A DNA stretch of 63,844 nt, the filler included, from Squatina squatina (lineage: Eukaryota), in assembly GCA_031763465.1 (NCBI GenBank). It is 4 parts of 4 records of this genome, joined end to end, with 100 filler letters (N's around TTAATTAATTAA, not from the genome) between each part and the next. Parts side by side here need not be neighbours in the genome. Positions count along the whole stretch, not along the records: positions 16,100 to 34,483 come from JARFOE010000019.1; 3 more parts are not named here. One strand, given 5' to 3'. The notes under the pieces are model-generated. The model was not told the origin of the DNA and searched no databases. It was given only the letters and a program-made list of their open reading frames with translations. The position numbers and the translations under genes are program-made. Of the stretch, positions 22,853-62,881 are shown piece by piece; position 1 is the stretch's first letter; each line of letters opens with the position of its first letter.

Positions 22853-23888
22853 CAAAATGGGGCGGATACAGTGAAAAAATAATTGTGCTTCATTTTAAAC
22901 AGAATGGAATGTGATGTCAAGGTTCTTCCAAATGCACTGGAAGTTATCGAGAAGCTTGAGCCAGCTGGTCTTATTGATTATTGTATCTGAATTCTTTTGT
23001 TTATTGATTACAAAAGGACATGTGATTCAAATAATTTAATTGGGAGGGATGGGGAAAGCAAGTGTCAGTAAAGGCGTATGAACCAGCTGTGTCCCTGAAA
23101 TGGTTTTAACATAGAGCAGGAAACCATTGAACTGATCAAAGCTGATGACTAGGTTTAGCAGCTCTACACTGAAAAGGCATTTCTCGTTGATCAATTTGCC
23201 AACAAAATGTGTGAAAATTTAGTTAGCAAATCAAATGAACAGGCAGAGAAAAGCTACCGAGCTCTCAGAAATTGAAGCTATCTCGTAACGCAAGCAGATT
23301 TGCCTGACTAATACTTTCCTGCAAAGGTAATGAGACTAAATCAATCCAGATGACTTTCACTGCTCACTCAACCGCAAGAAGCTATGATTGAACAGGATAG
23401 CTATGCACAGGCTAACACCAAAGTAGGGATCATTGCAAAAATACAGACAATATAATGTAATCTCTTGCAACAAGAGAACGGGGAAAAAAGCAGAGTCAAA
23501 GCGCGTGTGATGCTGTGATTGCGAGAGTGGATTATTTTGCAGCAACAATGGTATTTGTGAAGCACAAATGTAGCTGGGTTATGCCAAGGTAGTTTATAAC
23601 AGGTGTGATTTATTCAGACTCGTAATGGTTCGAACCCAACCCCCAAATGTGTTGATGAGGAGGATTCCTGTTAGATTGATGCGTGCGCACAAAACATCAG
23701 CTTTCCAAGAACGGCAAAGCACTGGCACGAGACCACCAGAGAACTGAGCAAACACCCACCACTTACGTACCAGGGAATTGGATGTGTGCCCACCACGCAC
23801 GCAAACTCAACGCGAGACCACCAAAGAAGTGGATGCATACTTACCAACATTCAGGCGCATAATGAATAGGCTGCCAATGACATATATA

Positions 23889-24026
23889 ACCAAAAGCAAA
23901 ATGCTGCGGATATTGGAATCTAGAATATAAACAAAAAATGCAGGTAAAACTCAGCAGGTCAGGCAGCATCTGTGGAGAGAAAAGCAAAGTTAACATTTCG
24001 GGTCGATGACCCTTCATCAGAACTCT
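23889..24026 (-). mobile_element. Penelope-like element terminal repeat, copy 1
   Basis: aagcaaaatgctgcggat...ctcagcaggtcaggcagcatctgtggagagaaaagc...ttcatcagaactct; repeated 437 bp downstream. Confidence 0.8.
23986..24026 (-). ncRNA. Minimal type I hammerhead ribozyme motif
   Basis: Minus strand AGAGTT-CTGATGA-A-GGGTC(ATC)GACCC-GAAA-TGTT-AACTTT: both core boxes, 5-bp stem II, 6-bp stem I with one G-U, loop-less stem III. Confidence 0.72.
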
Positions 24027-24326
24027 CAGGGTGAATGTGTATGTTAATGGAGACAGTAACACTAGGGGTCAGTGTGTATGTTAATGGAGACAGTAACACT
24101 GGGGGTCAGAGTTTGTATTAATGGGCACAGTAACTCTCGGGGTCAGTGTTTGTTTTAATGGAGTCAGTAACTCTCGGGGTCAGTGTTTGTATTAATGCAG
24201 ACAATAACTCTCGATCATTGTGTGTGTTAATGGAGACAGTAACTCTCGGGGTCAGTGTGTGTATTGATGGAGACATTAACTCTCGGGGTCAGTGTTTGTA
24301 TTAATTAGACAGTAACTCTCAAGGTC
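24027..24326. repeat. Minisatellite, ~36-38-bp unit gggtcagtgtgtattaatggagacagtaactctc
   Basis: About 8 copies exactly between the two Penelope repeats. Confidence 0.9.
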
Positions 24327-24327
24327 A

Positions 24328-24402
24328 CAGAAGCAAAATACTGCGGATGCTGGAATCTAGAATACAAACAAAAAATGCTGGAAAAACTCAGCAGGTCAGG
24401 CA
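24328..24402 (-). mobile_element. Penelope-like terminal repeat, copy 2 (cut by gap)
   Basis: Direct repeat of 23891-23965 at offset 437. Confidence 0.8.
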
Positions 24403-25373
24403 NNNNNNNNNNNNNNNNNNNNNNNNNNNNNNNNNNNNNNNNNNNNNNNNNNNNNNNNNNNNNNNNNNNNNNNNNNNNNNNNNNNNNNNNNNNNNNNNNN
24501 NNTAATGACCTTTTAGCTCAACAATTTAATGGCATAATTTAAATGAAATGAAATGTATTTTCTACTTGATGGTTCCATATTGATAGTCAAGTCATAGGGT
24601 GAATGACTATATGGAGCATTTGCAGAGTTAATTACAATATGCTTTGTGTTACCTGCTCATGAGATTCTGGATGTCTCATCTGTATCGCCAAGTTTCTTTT
24701 CTTTTAATAAAAATGAGGGTACCGAACCTCCTGTATGTACCTCTTTTCAAAGTGCTCTACTTGTTAACAAACATGGAGTCAACCATCCAGAAATCTCTCT
24801 CCACTCGGACTGAGGTTCTTAAGTGGCGATCCGTGTCAAAAAATCAATCATGAATTGGGCTTCATTTTTTTTCTGAGAGAATGATGAGAAAGTCAGTTTG
24901 GAGCTTTATCTTTTAAAGGGGCACTACTGCCTGTTTAAACCAAGCTGTGCCTTGACGGCGTGACAGACTTAAGTTTACACTGAGGCTGCTGCGAAGCAGA
25001 CCTATTTCGGTGTTCTAGATATCAAGGGCTTTTTTTGAAGAGCTTTGAGAGCAGATTGTTGCTGTCATAAGAATTTTGCCTGCCCCCCAAAAAAAATACA
25101 CCAATGTAGCCACAGACGCCCTTTTCAAGAGGTAGTCGCCTTCGTTCATTCCTTGCTGATTGCGATATGCAATATTTACATCGTACAATGGCACAATTTT
25201 GCTCAGATCCATAAGCCAACAGAGGTGACTGGACAACCAGACGTGGAAGCCCAGCCTGATTCTTCCCCTCTCCCTATCCTAGAAAGATGAAAGCCAGTTG
25301 TACATTGAGTGCAGGAAAGCAGTGAAGGGCCCAACCTCCAAAAGTTGTAGATCTATGTAGTCACTGTAAAAGG

Positions 25374-25428: not shown

Positions 25429-25430
25429 AT

Positions 25431-25583
25431 ACGTCTCAGTCGCATCTGTTCTGATGATGCCACCTTCCAAAACAGCGCTTCCGACATGTATTCCTTTTTC
25501 CTCAAACGAGGATTCCCCTCTACCGTGGTGGACATGGCCCTCTACCGTAGTGGACATGGCCCTCGCCCATGTCCGGTCCATTT
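25431..25583 (+). mobile_element. Penelope ORF fragment
   Basis: RLSRICSDDATFQNSASDMYSFFLKRGFPSTVVDMAL, typical region between Penelope RT and GIY-YIG; internal 22-bp tandem duplication. Confidence 0.8.
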
Positions 25584-26283: not shown

Positions 26284-28629
26284 NNNNNNNNNNNNNNNNN
26301 NNNNNNNNNNNNNNNNNNNNNNNNNNNNNNNNNNNNNNNNNNNNNNNNNNNNNNNNNNNNNNNNNNNNNNNNNNNNNNNNNNNTGGAGGCGGCATTGGTG
26401 ATACTTCTCCAGTGCTTTGTTGCTGCAATGTCGACATAACCACAAACAGGGCTGTGACTTACATTGAAAGCACAAGCCTTACATTTGCCGTTTCCTTTGA
26501 GGTGGTGTGTGTAAGATAATCCAGATGAAGTCGCAGAGGCCTGTGTCTTTGGGATGACTTTTCTCAAAGCTCTGGAAAAGAGGGAGTCTTGTTAAAATGG
26601 AGAAAGGGATCCAGGCAATACAATTGAGATGGTTTTTGTAAAGGAATGCCAGGAAAATGGATTAAAATCCATGTCAGCTTTACATGCTGATGTGCAGCAG
26701 AGTCAGGAAATGACAGCTCTTGCAGTTAATGAAGTCCAGAAGCTAAAAGATTAGGAATTTCTTTCATCCCAACTTAGCTTTTAAACAACTGAGGAGCAAT
26801 TCCCTCCAGTTTGTTTGCTAGTAAAATGTGCCTGCCCGAGGTTCAGAGTAAGTTCAAGGATTCCTTTGTAGCTGACTAGATGCTGATCTACCCTCTTAGT
26901 TCCACACCAGTGACGGATTTGTCTTTATTATTGGAGGTCAAACAGGGACTTAACCAACAAGTTGATGTGCCTGCAAACCTAACTGGGGGTAGGAATGACA
27001 AACGCGAGCACCATCAGAAGCCCATTGTTACACAATGAGTGCTGTATACTGATGCTCTTCATTTGCAACACAGCTTTCTCGAGTGACATTCCAAGCAAGT
27101 ACTGCCGCACAATGTTCTTTTTGTTCTGGAGAATGGCACTCCTTACTTTTGCTATCATTAGCCAACATTCCACTTGTATTACCTATATGTCTCAGTCAAA
27201 CACCAATGTAATAGGTGGAAGCAACATCAAATAGGCTGCAGTCAAACTCTGAGACACTCCTGTACGGAGGTTACAGGGATACAGACTTGAAGTTGAACAC
27301 AACATGATACCATGATACTTTTCGCTGACTCGATCTACACAAACCATTGAACTACTTTCAATGTTGATATCGTCTTGTCTTTTTCTCGTTGAGACAAGTT
27401 TCCTTTTCAACGTCGGAGTCTGACACCGTTGCTGTAATACGAAGGGGTGGGGCTGATTCATTGACAGCGAGGGAAAGCACCCACAAGTAAACGTGGCAAC
27501 ACAAAAAGAACAGCAGCAAAATAGAACAGGGAACTAATGAGATGGCGCTCAAAGATTTCCTCTGTGTGCTGGGCGCAGCAAAATCGTAAACCAGTTCTTT
27601 ATAAACAGCTCGAGGAACAGCACCCCATCTTTCGATTAGGCACTTTACAGCCTTCTGGACTTAACATTGAGTTCAACAATTTCAGAGCATAACCTCTNNN
27701 NNNNNNNNNNNNNNNNNNNNNNNNNNNNNNNNNNNNNNNNNNNNNNNNNNNNNNNNNNNNNNNNNNNNNNNNNNNNNNNNNNNNNNNNNNNNNNNNNAAT
27801 CATGTCTGCATGAATGGATCTTATACCTTCCCTCAGTATGAGGCCAGACTTCTCCTGTCTTGCATTCAGGGCACCTTGCTGTGCCAGAAATATTTTACCA
27901 CTGATTTATCTCTATTGTTCATTATTATGATCTCAGAGAAAGCTCCTACTTTCAGGGGTGGGGCAATGTTAGTAAGGATGAAGAAAACAAGATTACGATC
28001 TCTCAGGAGTATGACAGAAGCCAACACTCATTTAGATCTTATTATTTTTCCCTGGATCACACTGCGAATGGTAATTTTACTGCATACTGTGATCTACTGA
28101 CAGTAATGTAATACTTCTGGTAATTACAGCATATCCGCATTTTCCGCACTCCCAACTTGAATTAATTAGTGCACATCGACTAAAACATCAATTAAACCAA
28201 TTATTAGGGAGTGGACGGGACGAAAATCAGCCAGATGGTATTTTTCTGTTTCTTCAAGAGCACGTTAGACTTGTGCGAGCCTAGAAATTCCATCATGTTG
28301 TGCCTGTTTTACAGGCATAAAATGGGCACCTAAGAGTCCACTATGGCAGGCCCTGCCCATTCTACACCATAAGTGTCCACTGCAAGCACCCGAATCATTT
28401 AAAAACCTCATTATCATATTTAAATATGTGTCCTACCTTTTTGTGAAATTAATCGGCCCCAATGTCCAACTCGCCACGTGAATAAAACTTGTTAAGCAAC
28501 TCGTGGCGGTAGGACCCTTCAGCACCGCTACTGAAGGGGCTCATCTACTATAGGCAGCCCAGTTGCTGGTTTGTCCTTTTAGGCTGCTGGTAAGCTTCTG
28601 GGTGTTTTTTGGCCTATTTATGTCTATTT

Positions 28630-31660: not shown

Positions 31661-31768
31661 GATAGTGAGACTCTGTGTACACAATAGTGAGACACTGTGT
31701 ACAGGATAGTGAGACACTGTGTAAACAATAGTGAGACACTGTGTACACAATAGTGAGACACTGTGTAC
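31661..31768. repeat. Minisatellite, 22-bp unit atagtgagacactgtgtacaca
   Basis: About 5 copies running into a gap. Confidence 0.9.
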
Positions 31769-35779: not shown

Positions 35780-35965
35780 CAGGAAATATAAGGTCTGTCA
35801 GCAACTGAAAAGACATAGGGTGAGGATTTTGCACGAGTCCTGGCAAGAGTTTCAACCCAAATTGTTAATCCATCTTTGCTCTTTCAGATGCTGACTGACC
35901 TATGCCTTTCTAACATTTACTGTGTTCACTTGAGATTGCCAGCATTTGCAAATTTTCTCCTTTTT
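35780..35965. mobile_element. Degenerate Penelope terminal repeat
   Basis: gttaatccatctttgctctttcagatgctgactgacc...ccagcatttgca resembles the reverse complement of 23889-23995. Confidence 0.5.
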
Positions 35966-42014: not shown

Positions 42015-42843
42015 TCCCTCACTGGGGATCTCAGTCCCTCACTGGCGATCTCAGTCCTTCACTGGGGATCTTGGTCCCTCTCTGGGGATCTTGGTCCCTC
42101 ACTGGCGATCTCAGTCCTTCACTGGGGATCTTGGTCCCTCACTGGGGATCTCAGTCCTTCACTGGGGATCTTGGTCCCTCACTGGGGATCTCAGTCCCTC
42201 ACTGGCGATCTCAGTCCTTCACTGGGGATCTTGGTCCCTCTCTGGGGATCTGTCTCTCTCACTGGGGATCTTGGTCCCTCACTGGGGATCTCAGTCCTTC
42301 ACTGGGGATCTCAGTCCTTCACTGGGGATCTTGATCCCTCTCTGGGGATCTGGCTCTCTCACTGTGGATCTCAGTCCTTCACTGGGGATCTTGGTCCCTC
42401 ACTGGGGATCTCAGACCCTCACTGGTGATCTCAGTCCTTCACTGGGGATCTTGGTACCTCTCTGGGGATCTGGCTCTCTCACTGGGGATCTTGGTCCCTC
42501 TCTGGCGATCTCAGTCCTTCACTGGGGATCTTGGTCCCTCTCTGGCGATCTCAGTCCTTCACTGGGGATCTCAGTCCTTCACTGGGGATCTTGGTCCCTC
42601 TCTGGGGATCTGGCTCACTCACTGGGGATCTCAGTCCTTCACTGGGGATCTTGGTCCCTCTCTGGGGATCTTGGTCTCTCACTGGGGATCTCAGTCCCTC
42701 ACTGGTGATCTTGGTCCCTCTCTGGGGGTCTTGGTCTCTCACTGGGGATCTCAGTCCCTCACTGGGGATCTTGGTCCCTCACTGGGGATCTCAGTCCCTC
42801 ACTGGGGATCTCAGTCCCTCTCTGGGGATCTCAGTCCCTCACC
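42015..42843. repeat. Minisatellite, 20-bp unit actggggatc(tcag/ttgg)tccctc
   Basis: About 41 copies; explains the repetitive ORFs. Confidence 0.96.
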
Positions 42844-44606: not shown

Positions 44607-44856
44607 ATTTACTTAGGCACAGAACCAGTCGTCTGCTATGGAGACACAATTCATTTTTTGATCTGCTGTTTGATTTGATTCGATTGCCATCAAGGGCGGA
44701 GCGCGCCAGGAGCCGGGAAGCTATAACTTCTTCCAACTTACAGTTTGTATCGTTCGTAATCAAAGCAATCAGATCAAATCAAACAGCAGATCAAAAATGA
44801 AATGTGCCCCCGCAGCGGCTAAACACAAGCCGAACCCGTTCTGTGTCTGAGTAAAT
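44607..44856. repeat. Fold-back inverted repeat (probable MITE)
   Basis: Outer arms 44607-44625/44838-44856, inner ~42-bp arms 44645-44687/44765-44806. Confidence 0.85.
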
Positions 44857-49308: not shown

Positions 49309-49478
<170 letters not shown>

Positions 49479-50270: not shown

Positions 50271-50554
50271 AAGGCTTCCTTTGTATTGTATCTTTGCACC
50301 TCAATATCACCAGATACCTGTGTGAAAATTACCCCTTGTGAAAGTAATGATAATAGTAATCATTTTCACTGGAAAACCTGCCATGGTCCTGAAAGTTCAG
50401 ATAATAATCACTTATAAATTAGCTTCTTGGGATTTTTTCCCCCTAAGTTATTTAAATGAAGTCAGTAAGCTGTTGTATTATCCACTTTAGAGCCACTAAA
50501 ATAAATTGATATCAGCCAATTATCCATACTCTGTTTTTCTTTGTTTAATGGCAG

Positions 50555-50746
50555 CTTTGGGTGAACCAGGAAGACACTGTAGATGAAGCCAGTAGTGAGA
50601 TTCAAAATGGGCATCTGGACCCAAACTCCGACTGCCTGTGCCTCGGCAGAAGTATCCAGAACAGAGACCAGATGAGGGCAAATGTCATCAATGAAATTAT
50701 GAGCACAGAACGACACTACATTAAACATCTGAAGGACATCTGTGAG
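50555..50746 (+). CDS. ARHGEF9: ARHGEF9 exon (SH3-DH linker, start of DH domain)
   Basis: ggcag|CTT ... GAG|gtaata; 192 nt; LWVNQED...[30 protein letters not shown]. Confidence 0.96.
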
Positions 50747-51272
50747 GTAATAATAACATATCTACAGCTCCAAGTTTCTTCATACTGATAATATAAATAG
50801 CATGGGAGAGTTCTGATTGCTGCACTTTTGTTCTTGGGAACATTCATTGTTACTCTTCAAAAAATCAATAGGTCCAGATTATTTAATTATTAATAAATTA
50901 TGTCCCTGCAGCTAAGACTTAAAGCTGCAGTATGTTAAAGAATCAGAAGGGATGAATTGCTTTGAGTCTTCACTCCTGTGCCACTATGAATTTAGCAGAA
51001 CTTCAATGGAACTTGTGTAAGTGGGGTTCCAACAAATTTCTGCTGAAGTTACGATCACACAGCAGGAAAAGACTGAAGGAAATTCTCCCCCGTGGAGTTC
51101 TTAAGTCTTATTTATGAAGTGCCATCATCTTTTAATAAAAATCCAAGGCATCAGTGAATATTTTGAAAAGAGACCTAATTTTAATCCTCACTCTGATGCT
51201 ATTTGCCAGCACAAATCAATATATTTTTTTAAATTTATATATCCTCCTTAATCTCTTGTGGCATTGCTTGTG

Positions 51273-53810: not shown

Positions 53811-54997
53811 AAAATGGAGGGAAACAATTAGCAGAGAAAAAAAGGCAATAGGTAAAACTTAATTTACACATTGTTGAACTTTTAGGGGGTGAGTTTACAT
53901 TGAGCAATAGTGCAAAAGGGACAATAAGTGCAGCGGCTGCCTCTTCTACATTCTCTCGAATTTTCTTTTCCATTGACTTCAAATAACAGCTTTTGCTGAT
54001 CTGCTAAAATGTACAAATGGAATTTTCTCCACATATGAACAAAAGCTTCATGAATAGCTAGCTACCTCAGTACTAGAACAACAACAATAACGTGCCTTTC
54101 ATCCTGCAGCTTTTGACAGGGTTGACCACACTCCTCTAACACCTCTCCAAGGGGAGAACTGCATCACATNNNNNNNNNNNNNNNNNNNNNNNNNNNNNNN
54201 NNNNNNNNNNNNNNNNNNNNNNNNNNNNNNNNNNNNNNNNNNNNNNNNNNNNNNNNNNNNNNNNNNNNNCTTGAAGCTTGCTAATTTTATATTTATATCT
54301 ACAACTCTGTGTTCACAATCCAAATGGAATAACCTGCCTGCACCTTTATTTTGCAGTTTTTGAAACTTGGAATGTATCTGCACTCAATCTTTTTTCGAAT
54401 GAAAATAATCAGGTCATTGAGTCTGCCTTCATAACAGAGAGCTCTGAGGCCTCAAATCATCCGTGTCACTCATCTCTTGAACCGCTTCCAATGCATCAAT
54501 GTCATTTTGAAGGTAAGGTGCTCACAATTTCCAAATGTTGTTTCATATGTGGCCCAACCAATAATCTATAAAATGTTAGTATAATTTGTTTTGACTGATA
54601 CTCAAATGCCCTTGAGATACAACCCAGTATACGATTAGCTTTGTTGATAACATTGCATTAACTTTGCTCAAAAGACAGCATTTTGTTAAAAATTCCCAGT
54701 GTCAAAGTTACTGACAATTTAAAACTAACAAGCTTACCTGATACATCCTTCTAGAATTAATAGGCTGTTTTTTTTAAATTTTATTTTCTGAATATTAAAC
54801 TCATAATCAGTAGCTTATCTGGGTGCTCTGATTGTTTGGTATCTGTTATTAGATACCATTGCAGCTGACTGGTTATAATTTAGAAAGCGTATCACGGACA
54901 CATTTCACAAATAATACTGTCGGAATCTAATGAGAATCTACAAGCTTGATTGATCTGTCCTGTATGCATTAAATCTCAGTTTATGAGCAATACTCAC

Positions 54998-55100
54998 AAA
55001 TAATTGCCATCAAGGAATTGAAGTTGCCAATGTTAAAGCACTCCCGAGCTACATCTATGAAATATTCTATTACTCGTGCCCTGTGCTTCTTCTTCACCGG
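54998..55100 (-). CDS. RASGEF1B: RASGEF1B exon (CDC25 domain)
   Basis: cacag|CCG...T|gtgagt; PVKKKHRARVIEYFIDVARECFNIGNFNSLMAII; 103 nt. Confidence 0.95.
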
Positions 55101-55697
55101 CTGTGAATGACAGATGAGAAAATTGTAGTTCTTGTTTTGAATCTGAAAGATTAAATGGAGTCTGAGTGAAGACAGCGATGAGATCATCACCATAATTGTG
55201 CTGAAGTAAGAGACTGCATTTTAGAATGACATTGTTCTGGTGCCTTTCTGCTTTCCCCATGTGTTGTATTTCATTGCAGGTTAGCATCTCAGACGGCACA
55301 ATTTGGGTTGCTTCACACAAGCTGTAATTGATTTGTTTCTCCTCGGCTCCTTTGTGAAATGCTTCCCGGGGCTCACTCTGTGGTATCTGAATGTTCTACG
55401 GTTGATGCATGGTGGAGCAGGAGCAGAGGTTTCCCTCTGCATTAGCTGTCTGTGTCAGGTCGGGGTTTGCCCACAGGTTCACAGCGGTTCACCACCAACA
55501 ATGTTTAACATTTGTTGTCCCTATTAAAAGTGAGGAGAGTTAAAGTTCCCTGATGTCTCAGCTAATTTAGATCTCGAGTAGCTGAGACACACAGACCNNN
55601 NNNNNNNNNNNNNNNNNNNNNNNNNNNNNNNNNNNNNNNNNNNNNNNNNNNNNNNNNNNNNNNNNNNNNNNNNNNNNNNNNNNNNNNNNNNNNNNNN

Positions 55698-56111
55698 TGT
55701 AGTCAGACGATAAATGGCAGCCCCCTCGGCCGGATCAGGCCACCATTGCCTGACTAGCGGCCAGGCTGGTGGCCCGGTCGCCAACCGCCCTGGTGGCCTA
55801 GAGTAGCACCCTTCAGGATGGCCGACAGCCCTCCCCTTTAAGGGAGGCTCGGCTCTTCTGCTGACAGCAGCGCGCTGTGCGCTGACATCAGCGCACTGTG
55901 CTGTGACGCAGTGTTCGGGAGGCCAGTGGCATGGCGCTGAAGCCTCGCCACTGGCGTCCAACCCCGGCTGCTCTGGGAACGCCTGGGAGCGCGCTGAGTC
56001 CCACAGACGCCCTGGAGCACCGAATACCGGGACGGGGCAGGCGCCGGCTTGGAAATGCCGGCTCCCGCCCCGTACGCATTTCCAATGCGGCCAGGGAGTC
56101 AATTTCGGCCC
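55698..56111 (-). mobile_element. Harbinger-type non-autonomous element
   Basis: GC/CpG-rich, ends caatttcggccc; homologous to 40933-41236. Confidence 0.65.
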
Positions 56112-56582
56112 TCTGAGGTTACATCTCCAGCATTCATATGGCCCCTGCAAAATTGCTAACTCTGCCCAGTTATATTATTAACTTCTTTATGTTTCTTGAG
56201 CCATCTCTAATGAACTAATTCAGTCCGTAAAGATATTTCAAGCTGGTGAATAAACAGGAGGATATCAAGCCCCAAATGGCAACATCTGAGTTTGCTATTT
56301 CAGAAATCGTCAACATACCGGGCAATTACAGCACTGTAAGAGCCATCATTTACACACTGTAATCACACTATTAAATAACTTTTGCCCCCTTACTACGGAT
56401 CCACCAACTTCTCACAGAACCTTAGTAAACATGCACCTCCAAAGCTTAGGGAATAGAGGCTTAAGGGCCATAAAATTGAGTCACCATTATGACAAAATAG
56501 AAAAAGTACAAAATAAAAAAGCTTTTATGCACTATAAAATATAACCCAGTGGTACAATAATAATAATATATAAAACACTAAC

Positions 56583-56795
56583 CAGCTCTATGTGTGTTAG
56601 CTGCTGAGCTAAAGTGTATGGATCACTGCAAATGGTCACTACGTCTCTCTGAATGGATTGTGGTTTGGTCTTTAGCACAGTCAATCGGTCTGTGACAGAT
56701 GCATTTAACTTTGTGAGAACTTCTTCGTACTGGTTAAGGGTAGCAAGCTTCCGGATCAAATTCTGAGTCAACTGGTGCATGGTTTTCCGATGTGA
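56583..56795 (-). CDS. RASGEF1B: RASGEF1B exon
   Basis: gccag|TCA...CTG|gttagt; SHRKTMHQLTQNLIRKLATL...KTKPQSIQRDVVTICSDPYTLAQQLTHIEL; 213 nt. Confidence 0.95.
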
Positions 56796-57409
56796 CTGGC
56801 ACAGAAAGAAAAAAACACATGTTAGTAAAAATAAGCATCCAGATAAATCTAATCTGGTATGTCATTGATTCATGTAAACAAAATATTTCCTTCATCGTTT
56901 ATAACTGAAAGACATCATCAGATTAATGCACAGAACTCCTGATGGCTGTTCAATGGCCTTTACTGGAAAATGGATAGGCTTGAGCTCAAAGGTTTTCTGC
57001 CCCCCACCATCCTACTCACATTTGAAAAGCTTGCCAATGGTCATCATATATGTCTACTTATAAGAATGGCTTATTGATACAGAAAGGCTACCTGGATCCA
57101 TGAACCCGTACCATAACATGAGTCACTACCTATCAGATAGGAGAGTGTTAAAAGGGGAGAAACTTGGCTGAAACATTTTTAAGGTCAAAAGAAGAACTGA
57201 GTTCAATGCCACAGACAAGTAGTTACCACAATCCTCTGCAGAGTCGTTCAGAAACACAGAACCTCTTATGAAGTTATACTGGAGAGCCAGTGTATAACAG
57301 GGATTAATATTTCAATCCGCATGGCAAATTGAATGGAGCTGCCACAGTTCTACTGCAACAGGGTAACTCTGCAGTGATACATGAATGCGATTTTTAAAAA
57401 ATACATAAG

Positions 57410-58480
57410 GCCTGTAATTAGGCACTTTTTAGCGCCTCTTTCTAGCCTTATGAAGGCGTGATGGAGACGCTAAAAAAACTTTGGGCGTTAAAAGCCCAAT
57501 TCACGCCTCCCGCAAAATTTGGCCCCTATTTTCTTTAGGCGTTAAAAATTATTGCCTCCGCGACCCGGCGAGGTGCTATTTTTTGAGGCTCTAGCTGCCG
57601 GTGACATCATCACGGCACGCAACACCTCCGCAGCGTCCCGACAGAAAATTCGCCAGTCTGAACGCCTCTGCTGGCCTCTAGAAAACAGCACCACAAAAAC
57701 CTATCGGTACACAGGTTTCCCGCGGCATTACGCCATCTTGTTTGAGGGGATAAATAGCTGACTCATTGCGAGAACGGCGAGTGGGGGCAGGGGTGCATGT
57801 GATGTGTTCCTGCCGCTTGACCGTTGAAAATGGCTTAGTTCCTACAATGGAAGGTCTGAGAAACTTTAACCCCTTCAGCTCACAGGAACTTTGAAAGGGA
57901 CTCCGACCATCACAATGGGTGCTGTTCTTGCAGTGGACCGTCTACTACTGCTCTAACTGAGGGAGTACCTCATCAGAAGGGGAAGGTGGAGACAAGAGCA
58001 GAGGCAAAGGCTCCAGCAGGCAGATGGTCAAGGGGGGCGGGGAATTGGGGGATCCAGAATGCCACCAATCCAACAGGCACAGCCTGCAGAGGTGCCAACA
58101 GATAGGCACAGGCAGAGGCCAGCTATCAGAGGAAGGGGCAGGCAGCCCCACCCCCAAGATGACCCAGCAACTGACCCACCAGCACCAGACCAGCAACAGG
58201 ACCGAGGCAGAGGAAGGGCCCGTTTTAACGTCCAAAGGAGGCATTACCAACACAGGGTCTTCCAGGAGCACTTCAATTCCCTCAACTTATCTGAGGAACT
58301 TTGTATGAGAAGACTTCTATTCTCCCGGGAGCTCTGCCATCTGCTCACTCCAGATCTCTAGCCACAAACTCGGGTCAGGACAGCTCTGTCTGTAGCAGTC
58401 AAGGTCATGATAGTACTCAGCTTCTTCACCAATGGCTCCTTTCAGGGAGCCACTGGAGATATGAGCAACATTTCGCAATT
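57410..58480 (+). mobile_element. Harbinger/PIF transposon with disrupted transposase N-terminus
   Basis: HRVFQEHFNSLNLSEELCMRRLLFSRELCHLLTPDL*PQTRVRTALSVAVKVMIVLSFFTNGSFQGATGDMSNISQ; in-frame stop at 58359. Confidence 0.85.
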
Positions 58481-60008
58481 NNNNNNNNNNNNNNNNNNNN
58501 NNNNNNNNNNNNNNNNNNNNNNNNNNNNNNNNNNNNNNNNNNNNNNNNNNNNNNNNNNNNNNNNNNNNNNNNNNNNNNNNTCAAGGGGAGAAGGTTATAC
58601 TTTCTCTTGTTGGAGATACTCATTGACTGACACTTGTGTAGTGCTAATGTTACTTGCGCACCACCGAGTCACCTCTAGAACCTCTGATTTAATGTTAACA
58701 ACATAAACCATAAGGCCAAATAAAAGACTTTAGTGTGCAGTGAATCAAATCAACAACAAAAATCTGAAACGATAAGGCTCTTAAATTGTAGTAGTTCTTT
58801 ACAGTTTCTCGGTAGCTGTTTCTCATCTCTTTCCTCATTATGTCGACCCTTATACTATATAATACTACAGTGTAACATTATATAATGTTATGATTTCTGA
58901 AAAATTAATTTTTCATGGTTTGTTGTTGAACAATGCAGTTAAAGGCGTCCTCTAAGATTAATAACAGCAAAATCTGAATCGCAAATTTAACACAGAAATT
59001 TGCATTTGCAAAGCTGGCATTAAACATTTATGCTTACCATGTATTAATAATACAGACATGCTGATTCACAGCCTTCACTCTGTGCTGGTGACCATTTTGG
59101 TCTCTGCAGGACACCAAGAGCAAAACACTAGATAACTCTCCAATTACCTTTTGCTGATTGTAAATATGGAGAGGGAGAAAAAGGGAAGTTTTGACAGAAC
59201 GCGAAGCTCTCCTGCCTCTCTGCAGTTTCCACTAGATTTTTTAATCACCTTATTTTCTCCTCGCTCCTCGTAAATTTTTCCCAGTATAGCTCTCAGGCAC
59301 CCCAAGTGCATGAAAAACATTCTGAGTAATAATGCTCAGAAAACAAAACTGCTTCTTGTCTCCAAATAAAATGTCTGCACAGCTGACCAGAAATATCAAA
59401 CAACAGGTAGAAAAGTCTAATAATTACCCTGAAGCAAAATTTATAATTTTCCCATCACAATAAGCCTTTCTGCTTTGCAGGAAAGTTTAACAATGTACAT
59501 TGTTGGATTCCGGCTGAGCTGGTGACTGAGGAATTTTACTTTTTCTATCCATGTGTACTTTAAGCTACAATATGTAAGTGTGTTTTACACCAAGGCCTGG
59601 CCTTGGAATCAGAACATTTTTGGGGGGACAAAAAAGGATTTAAGATTAAAAATAAATATGGTACCATAGAACATAGAACATACAGCACATAACANNNNNN
59701 NNNNNNNNNNNNNNNNNNNNNNNNNNNNNNNNNNNNNNNNNNNNNNNNNNNNNNNNNNNNNNNNNNNNNNNNNNNNNNNNNNNNNNNNNNNNNNAAAACC
59801 AGTCTCCATCACAAAAGGAGTTGCCTGCCATTTTTTCTACTGCAGCGAGCAAGGAGTGCAAAATATTCTGGACATATCTTCTGCTTTGTTCAGTGCTAGG
59901 GGCCAAATCACTTATGCGCCATTGTGTCACGGTGAAGATATAAACATATTCTTTATGTAAAACAATTCTGCTATGGAATATATACAGACACAGTTGAATT
60001 ATACATAC

Positions 60009-60185
60009 ATCAGGATAGTAGTCCACTGTAGGCACAAGGTGCTGGATCAGTGCCTCCAGAGACCCCGACACAAGGTTGTTGTCATGGTAAAATAGACCTC
60101 CACAATTCTCCTCTCTGGATGAGTACAGATGTCGGCTGTAACCACTGCTATTAAACATTGCTGCAAAGGTTGGTGTTTGCGGCAT
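60009..60185 (-). CDS. RASGEF1B: RASGEF1B first coding exon
   Basis: aacag|GAAAGC-ATG (exon begins 60191), GAT|gtatgt; MPQTPTFAAMFNSSGYSRHLY...SGSLEALIQHLVPTVDYYPD is closer to recalled 1B than 1A or 1C. Confidence 0.93.
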
Positions 60186-60569
60186 GCTTTCCTGTTTTAA
60201 AAAAAAAAGAGATAATGCTTATTACTAGTCGATAAAATCAGTGCAACACAAGGTTATATTGTTTGTTGTGATGTTGCAATCAGTCTGGACTTCCTGTGAA
60301 AATGAAGCCTGGTTCACAGTTCCAGGCAGTTAACATCATGGCCAGGATTTTCCTCCACAGTCTCGCTTACTGCTGCCTCCCTTCTCTGAACTGGATTTAC
60401 TTCCTGTGCCCTTGTCAGGACCACCACTGGTTGCACCTTTCCCGACCACCACGTGTAAACTGGAAGGGGAGAGAGGGGGAGGACTTGGTCCCAAGCCAAT
60501 TTTCCTCATGTTACCACCACGTTACCACCACGTCCTTGGGCTGCAATAGAGAGGGAGGCAATAGGCCCA

Positions 60570-62397: not shown

Positions 62398-62881
62398 CGC
62401 ACTGTCGGAGCGGGGATACTGAGGGACGCTGCACTGTCGGAGGGGCAGTGCTTAGGGAGCGCTGCACTGTCGGAGGGGCAGTGCTGAGGGAGCGCTGCAT
62501 GGTCGGAGGGACAGTATGGAGCGATTGCTGCACTGTCGGAGGGACAGTGCCGAGGGAATGCTGCACTGTCGGAGGGACAGGACTGAGGGAGCGCTGCATT
62601 TTAGGAGGGACAGTACTGAGTAACAACTACACTGTCGGAGGGGCAGTACGGTGGGAGTGCAGCACTGTCGGAGGGGCAGTACTGAGGGAATGTTCCACTG
62701 TCGGTGGGGAAGTACTGAGGGAGTGCTGCATTTAAGAAGGGCCACTACTGAGGGATTGCAGCACTGTCGGAGGAGCAGTACTGAAGGAGTGCTGCGCTGT
62801 GGGTGGGGCAGTACTGACGGAGCACTGCACTGCCAGAGGGGCAGTCCTGACGGAGTGCTGCGCTGTGATAGGGGCAGTAGT
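62398..62881. repeat. Minisatellite, 33-bp unit gcactgtcggaggggcagtactgagggagcgct, SINE-derived
   Basis: About 14 copies; unit matches the SINE segment at 44953-44986. Confidence 0.9.

Follow-up and report, generated by a model that had tools for sequence, protein, structure and literature searches.

A minisatellite bracketed by two copies of a probable Penelope-like repeat end, one with a visible hammerhead, in Squatina squatina: a tentative case for one composite insertion

How does a minisatellite come to lie between two direct copies of an abundant repeat that resembles the short terminal part of a Penelope-like element (PLE)? This arrangement occurs in the window, by which we mean the whole 63,844-nt stretch of Squatina squatina DNA that was analysed (GCA_031763465.1). 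Self-comparison of the window (1-63844) recovered a direct repeat pair at 23891-23965 and 24328-24402 that is 75 nt long, 91% identical and offset by 437 nt, reproducing the earlier note's description of direct repeats at this offset that flank a minisatellite, with the second copy running into a gap. The minus-strand RNA of copy 1 has its 3′ end at about 23891. Copy 2 runs into the run of N at 24403-24502, and the position predicted for its ribozyme (24425-24461) falls within this gap; a second hammerhead was not observed. The two copies bracket the minisatellite, and the 437-nt unit (GC 0.42) is overlapped only by stop-to-stop frames of 75-77 aa and is otherwise non-coding. The coordinates of all features are collected in Table 1.

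Table 1. Position and nature of the features at the locus and in the rest of the window
Feature	Coordinates	Strand	Remarks
Unique left flank	23717..23893		Tracked by an orthologous contig of organism A; probable empty site
Copy 1 of the repeat	23891..24024	-	134 nt; read as a 5′-truncated PLE terminal (pLTR) piece, short end of a hyper-abundant repeat
Minimal type I hammerhead	23988..24024	-	Pattern and fold; criteria from PMC4209133
Minisatellite	24021..24327		8 units of 35-37 nt and a 14-nt partial unit
Copy 2 of the repeat	24328..24402	-	3′-terminal 75 nt of the 134-nt repeat; contig stops inside
Scaffold gap	24403..24502		100 N, true size not fixed; spot for a second ribozyme and any target-site duplication
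Scrap of PLE open reading frame	25429-25583	+	Directly after an (AT)n microsatellite; internal 22-nt duplication
Decayed third copy of the repeat	about 35836-35964		Opposite orientation; ribozyme core lost
KCNE-like single-exon frame	8075-8494	+	Pfam ISK_Channel, E 6e-06
SH3 and start of RhoGEF	49309-49478 and 50549-50788	+	
RasGEF exons	54981-60218	-	Only 4 kb from SH3/RhoGEF
Other minisatellites	5941-6257, 31662-31768, 42015-42842, 62399-62879		Periods 29, 22, 20 and 33; 76-91% matches

The reading that we favour, with a probability of about 0.45, is a single composite insertion, made by PLE machinery, in which an older minisatellite was brought along between two element ends with no need for a circle; the odds that we attach to this and to every other reading are judgements and were not computed. 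The insertion would have been made in trans by the reverse transcriptase and endonuclease of a PLE, acting on a donor RNA in which minisatellite units lay upstream of a short solo element end. Reverse transcription would start at the fixed 3′ end of the element (23891), run through the hammerhead into the minisatellite and pass, in mid-unit (24327), into a second element end, reached by a template jump to another element RNA or already present in the donor. The ribozyme would travel as a passenger of the element end, with neither cleavage nor a circle required. The layout, the sharp junctions and the abundance of the repeat in relatives are observed; we infer the PLE identity of the repeat, the single event and the template path, as well as the more general view that each copy of the repeat is a short insertion primed at a fixed site.

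The ribozyme motif in copy 1 fits the criteria for Penelope-type minimal hammerheads laid down by Cervera and De la Pena (2014, PMC4209133), as the earlier note had proposed. On the minus strand, the core residues C3-U4-G5-A6-N7-G8-A9 lie at 24020-24014 and G12-A13-A14-A15.1, U16.1 and H17 at 23999-23992, with the GAAA at 23999-23996 followed by U15.2-G16.2-U16.1-U17 (H17 is U). An extra A (24013) sits between positions 9 and 10.1, and G24012 and C24000 form the G10.1-C11.1 pair. Helix II has 5 bp (24012-24008 with 24004-24000) and a 3-nt loop; helix I has 4 bp (24024-24021 with 23991-23988), or 6 bp counting two minisatellite letters. These two letters limit the minus-strand hammerhead at 23986-24026 that had been claimed for this locus: the motif is present, but the 5′ letters of its two outer pairs (24025-24026) belong to the minisatellite and not to the repeat family, since contigs from related organisms leave the window at 24024. 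The cut is predicted between 23992 and 23991, at a GUU triplet, a cleavage site that cuts less well than GUC. Positions 15.2-16.2 of copy 1 read U-G, and the palindrome for a dimeric helix III is lost. U15.2 looks like CpG decay because the relatives' loose-end consensus (run X5, agreement about 0.45) has CG and TG where the plus strand of the window has CA, which bears out an earlier caveat about decay; the available part of PMC3088659 held nothing on position 15.2.

As a pattern, the core alone is not significant, since a loose version of it matched nine times in the window (four of them at the hammerhead site) against 4.0 +/- 3.0 times in shuffles. When helix II of at least 5 bp and helix I of at least 4 bp were required, lengths chosen after the motif had been seen, the hammerhead was the sole match in the window, with none in 30 shuffles. 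Folded in isolation, the motif is modestly stable (z -1.62; 15 of 200 shuffles equally good). Within the visible 512-nt RNA, helix II forms with P about 0.92 and helix I with P about 0.03 in a model that cannot fold dimers, and the visible 411 nt of the putative monomer fold unremarkably (z -1.26). Rfam returned no hammerhead match in the window or in 23880-24402, and pattern scans gave 0 in viral contigs, 0 in prokaryote genomes and 0 in metagenome contigs (28-nt pattern). A 20-nt scan yielded 120 loci that were rejected as chance microbial matches (26 alignments to the 134-nt repeat, all shorter than 30 nt; mean GC 65%), and a search for the motif in papers met unrelated primers only. Just downstream of the predicted cut, 23969-23992 on the minus strand holds a pyrimidine tract ending in CAG and then ATG, which, speculatively, resembles a splice acceptor; in Penelope of D. 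virilis an intron end maps to helix I (PMC4209133).

Remains of PLE proteins were sought around the repeat. The reading-frame scrap, over 25429-25566, matches whale-shark protein fragments and a PLE-type protein of gar, the latter itself a weak GIY-YIG match (E 0.0016, below the Pfam cut-off), and these matches point to a shark-like genome with PLE remains. The scrap lies 1 kb from the repeat, on another contig and on the other strand, and is not joined to it. No PLE protein was found in the viral and genome contigs searched, nor any locus combining the repeat with a PLE reading frame; Pfam matched none of three short PLE-like scraps, and a word-index protein search gave none. A short frame at 27606-27692 (+) resembles what we take to be the C-terminus of a PLE endonuclease, an assignment that Pfam and tblastn did not support.

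The array between the copies has a period of 37, 8.4 copies and 83% matches, and its units share a mean pairwise identity of 82%. The 300 bp of repeats described before thus stand as the array 24021-24327, with units of 35-37 rather than 36-38 nt. Four letters (24021-24024) are common to copy 1 and the minisatellite, and at copy 2 the array ends on a partial unit. An origin of the minisatellite from the element was tried and rejected, as 11% of 2000 shuffles score as well (fraction 0.11). Left of copy 1 no array remnant was detected (shuffle fractions 0.80 and 0.73). The lack of units outside copy 1 and the break in mid-unit favour the composite insertion, both being what copying from an element end would leave. 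So does the apparent age of the array: its units differ pairwise by 18%, against 9-14% between the window and its relatives in unique flank, and the array therefore looks older than the arrival of copy 1, an argument that fast minisatellite divergence can weaken.

The same edges bear on a local tandem duplication of element and array unit at the DNA level, with a second array hidden in the gap. Close kinship of the copies, a gap that could conceal such an array and the tendency of arrays to promote unequal exchange (PMC6947457) speak for it. Unequal exchange, however, requires that units flank the element on either side, and there are none left of copy 1; moreover, no array-like sequence was found right of the gap, where the contig may come from far away. 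We regard such a duplication as the least probable of the origins weighed here.

Contigs of related organisms place the locus in the context of its repeat family. They come from four of the five runs listed, three of one organism A sample and one of organism B (X3 omitted), and from species other than that of the window, with orthologous flank 9-14% different; the listing included no RNA run, which has no bearing on expression. Summed depth reaches 0.78-1.95 million on the repeat, whereas unique flank has 7-21. We take the ratio of 50,000-128,000 as an order of magnitude only (about 10^5), because summed depth is no copy number. The 134-nt repeat is extremely abundant in both organisms. At 24024, hundreds of contigs depart from the window (253, 299 and 317 in the three organism A runs), and the consensus of their continuation (agreement 0.46-0.51) is unlike the minisatellite. 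Since so many contigs continue otherwise, copies of the family in organism A do not normally contain the minisatellite. The continuation is probably a mix of a longer family body and the varied flanks of short copies; its motif had 0 matches elsewhere in the window. Joints from 24021 to 24331 and from 24024 to 24335, each with sides of 21 letters and seen in one contig per organism A run, hint that short copies stand head to tail at other sites. The minisatellite unit belongs to a dispersed family, as organism B has a related unit, with a period close to 33, in very high abundance (bin 24199-24292 has a depth of 284,589); in this organism the array is overlain by the related repeat, and junction-spanning contigs are uncountable. 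The array core in organism A is covered at 0.24-0.30 of single-copy depth (bin 24105-24198), a hole that we did not count as evidence, and none of the relatives' contigs among the pieces listed bridges the gap at 24403-24502.

A contig of organism A, 591 nt long and from one sample (records 12 and 20), tracks the left flank over 23717-23893 and then continues with 276 further letters that are placed nowhere in the window among the matches listed. The point of departure is no more than 3 nt from the end of the element; this suggests an empty site and a lineage-specific insertion, and it favours the composite insertion. Beyond the matches listed, the 276 nt could hide a short piece of the array or a joint onto it, in which case the array would be resident and only copy 1 new.

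A resident array is the starting point of the reading in which an abundant short element end inserted twice, independently, at the edge of the minisatellite and within or beside it. With a repeat so abundant, each genome would hold some 4-750 pairs that lie on one strand and no more than 450 nt apart, the figure varying with the assumptions; PLEs favour simple or AT-rich targets, and the four letters shared at 24021-24024 are consistent with microhomology at the 5′ junction. Two insertions would also agree with copy 1 standing further from the family than copy 2. The copies differ at 7 of 75 positions, and with the decayed third copy as outgroup, four changes are private to copy 1, one is private to copy 2 and two are ambiguous; the relatives' family contigs cover copy 2 some 260-1900 times more deeply than the opening 26 nt of copy 1. 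Copy 2 thus appears closer to the family, but the 4:1 asymmetry is not significant (p 0.375), and an assembler may pull a contig end toward the consensus. Two insertions further require copy 1 to sit exactly at the array edge, and no duplication surrounds copy 1. By rough arithmetic assuming 10^4-10^5 copies and a 4-Gb genome, random insertion would give 0.005-0.5 exact-edge pairs per genome before target bias, against 340-3400 copies expected within arrays as possible donors. We hold two independent insertions to be unlikely, though deserving real weight.

For the composite insertion, the rarity of random exact-edge pairs beside so many potential donors lying in arrays counts in favour, as does the kinship of the copies. 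They appear to be close kin: at two positions they agree with each other against the third copy and against the relatives' loose-end consensus. The sign is weak, as this consensus comes from contigs unlike the window. Against the composite insertion, no target-site duplication is visible: the visible sequence holds no match of at least 7 nt to the left flank, and the right end, where the duplication would be, is inside the gap. The sequence just right of the gap was tried as a remnant of the second ribozyme and rejected, since 33% of shuffles are as good and the relatives' contigs also cover it.

The assembly itself is a further point against the composite insertion. The window is pieced together from short reads, with a median piece length of 1040 nt and 52 gaps, of which three consist of 44 N, a 12-nt A/T spacer and 44 N. 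Exons of unrelated genes are packed into 64 kb, among them the KCNE-like frame (8075-8494), SH3/RhoGEF exons (49309-49478 and 50549-50788) that we take to be ARHGEF9/4-like and RasGEF exons (54981-60218), presumably RASGEF1-like, which suggests that the 100-N gaps are of undefined size and that neighbourhoods across them are unreliable. A frame at 418-795 (+), with no Pfam match, presumably resembles the C-terminal exon of PAX3/7, and 44645-44806 contains a 43-nt inverted repeat pair, 91% identical and about 80 nt apart. In such an assembly the locus might be a chimeric contig that enters the repeat from the left flank and exits through a copy from another locus that borders an array, which would also account for the sharp left edge and the empty site. 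Copy 1, however, is only 134 nt long and carries private changes, so reads should probably span it, and it is in copy 2, the nearer of the two to the consensus, that the contig breaks off, as expected of an honest assembly. We judge a chimera to be quite improbable.

The last origin to be weighed is the one first proposed for this locus, a circular retrozyme: a donor with two active hammerheads would release a 437-nt monomer by cleavage as a dimer, and this monomer would close into a circle and be reverse transcribed over more than its full length. Its size and 42% GC are within the ranges of animal non-LTR retrozymes, which have been proposed to derive from PLE pLTRs, and since the copies differ by 9%, where the window and its relatives differ by about 9-14%, one insertion soon after the split is possible. 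A circle may have existed when the copies were young. On the other side, one ribozyme is visible and its 15.2-16.2 palindrome is lost, minimal hammerheads are poor cleavers even as dimers (PMC4209133), and eight of nine Xenopus dimers assayed showed no cleavage (bioRxiv 10.64898/2026.07.22.740005). Helix I is improbable in the visible RNA (P about 0.03), the visible monomer is not unusually structured, and the family contigs proceed past 24024 with other sequence. In the PLE studied in vitro, cleavage needed the PLE protein and was dispensable for insertion (PMC11167929). Transport of the minisatellite as cargo agrees with our favoured reading; travel as a ribozyme-cut circle found no support, with the second ribozyme unseen and 253-317 organism A contigs per run leaving at 24024 otherwise, and we consider it very unlikely.

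The earlier note went on to suggest a general route for spreading shark minisatellites, and the other arrays of the window do not bear this out. Each of the four touches or adjoins a gap, and the 134-nt repeat is beside none of them in the visible 400-nt flanks (0/4, each with a gap in one flank). Their flank scores for the repeat are 22-40, against a window median of 30 and 260 and 122 for the array at 24021-24327. That short hammerhead-bearing PLE ends act as a non-autonomous vector, any transcribed copy within a minisatellite moving a block of units elsewhere, at times through a ribozyme-made RNA circle, and that this is one of the main routes of dispersal of shark minisatellite families, is a conjecture that we rate as very doubtful, although the related unit in organism B does show that a dispersed family exists. 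Spread of minisatellites by transduction with transposable elements is a standing idea (PMC6947457), and we found no publication on PLE-carried minisatellites in sharks in a literature search that covered subscription journals thinly. Many blocks genome-wide with both junctions and one target-site duplication would, if they exist, make this a testable dispersal mechanism for shark minisatellite families. It would also provide a natural test of circular intermediates from PLE hammerheads, proposed in PMC4209133 and not needed in vitro in PMC11167929.

Four known systems invite comparison. First, minimal hammerheads reside in the pseudo-LTRs of metazoan PLEs (PMC4209133), and the locus behaves like such a terminal piece, its sequence features agreeing except for the palindrome. 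It shares with them the type I core, the absence of a helix III loop, the extra nucleotide between 9 and 10.1, the G10.1-C11.1 pair and a 4-bp helix I (known range 4-5 bp), as well as occurrence mostly as solo truncated copies in very large numbers. It differs in the non-palindromic U-G at 15.2-16.2 and in a helix II of 5 bp, against 7-8 bp in schistosome families. Sharks are not named in the available sections and supplements of PMC4209133, and shark terms are absent from the available supplements of PMC8557442.

Second, PAc, the Poseidon element of Anolis carolinensis, has its hammerhead at the junction of pLTR and ORF, and its reverse transcription starts internally; the ORF has its beginning at stem II, and the start site is 111-118 nt further on (Frangieh et al. 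2024, PMC11167929). In vitro, its hammerhead depends on the PLE protein for cleavage, and catalytic mutants are no worse at insertion. At our locus 122 nt separate the start of helix II from the element end downstream of it, likewise an insertion end at about 110-120 nt, and this similarity to the anole PLE favours the composite insertion; the PAc start is in an AC-rich stem loop, whereas the RNA end at the locus is U-rich.

Third, animal non-LTR retrozymes measure 150-450 bp with less than 50% GC (Cervera and de la Pena 2020, PMC7229834), and retrozymes with a mean of 363 bp are reported from one chondrichthyan (Li, Clavereau and Pollet 2026, bioRxiv 10.64898/2026.07.22.740005). The locus resembles them in its non-coding unit of a few hundred nt, its type I hammerhead, the presence of more than one unit in tandem, low GC, kinship with PLEs and occurrence in a chondrichthyan. 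Canonical retrozyme hammerheads have a helix III and contacts between loops 1 and 2 (PMC7229834); the motif here is minimal and decayed and has no helix III loop, although Li et al. also accept minimal motifs as retrozyme hammerheads. With a single visible ribozyme and a 437-nt unit not seen as a multi-copy family, the locus is not filed as a retrozyme.

Fourth, in Adineta vaga Penelope has taken up host DNA between direct pLTRs and mobilised it in trans (Arkhipova et al. 2013, PMC3846280), and this precedent for unrelated DNA between solo pLTRs favours the composite insertion. Both cases place unrelated sequence without an ORF between two direct element ends at a probable empty site. Our locus departs from the Adineta vaga capture in its cargo, a 300-nt minisatellite, in the lack of a visible target-site duplication or inverted third pLTR on account of the gap, and in an empty site that comes from another species and is only partly visible. 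The arrangement is a decayed example of two known things, the minimal hammerheads of PLEs and DNA captured between PLE ends.
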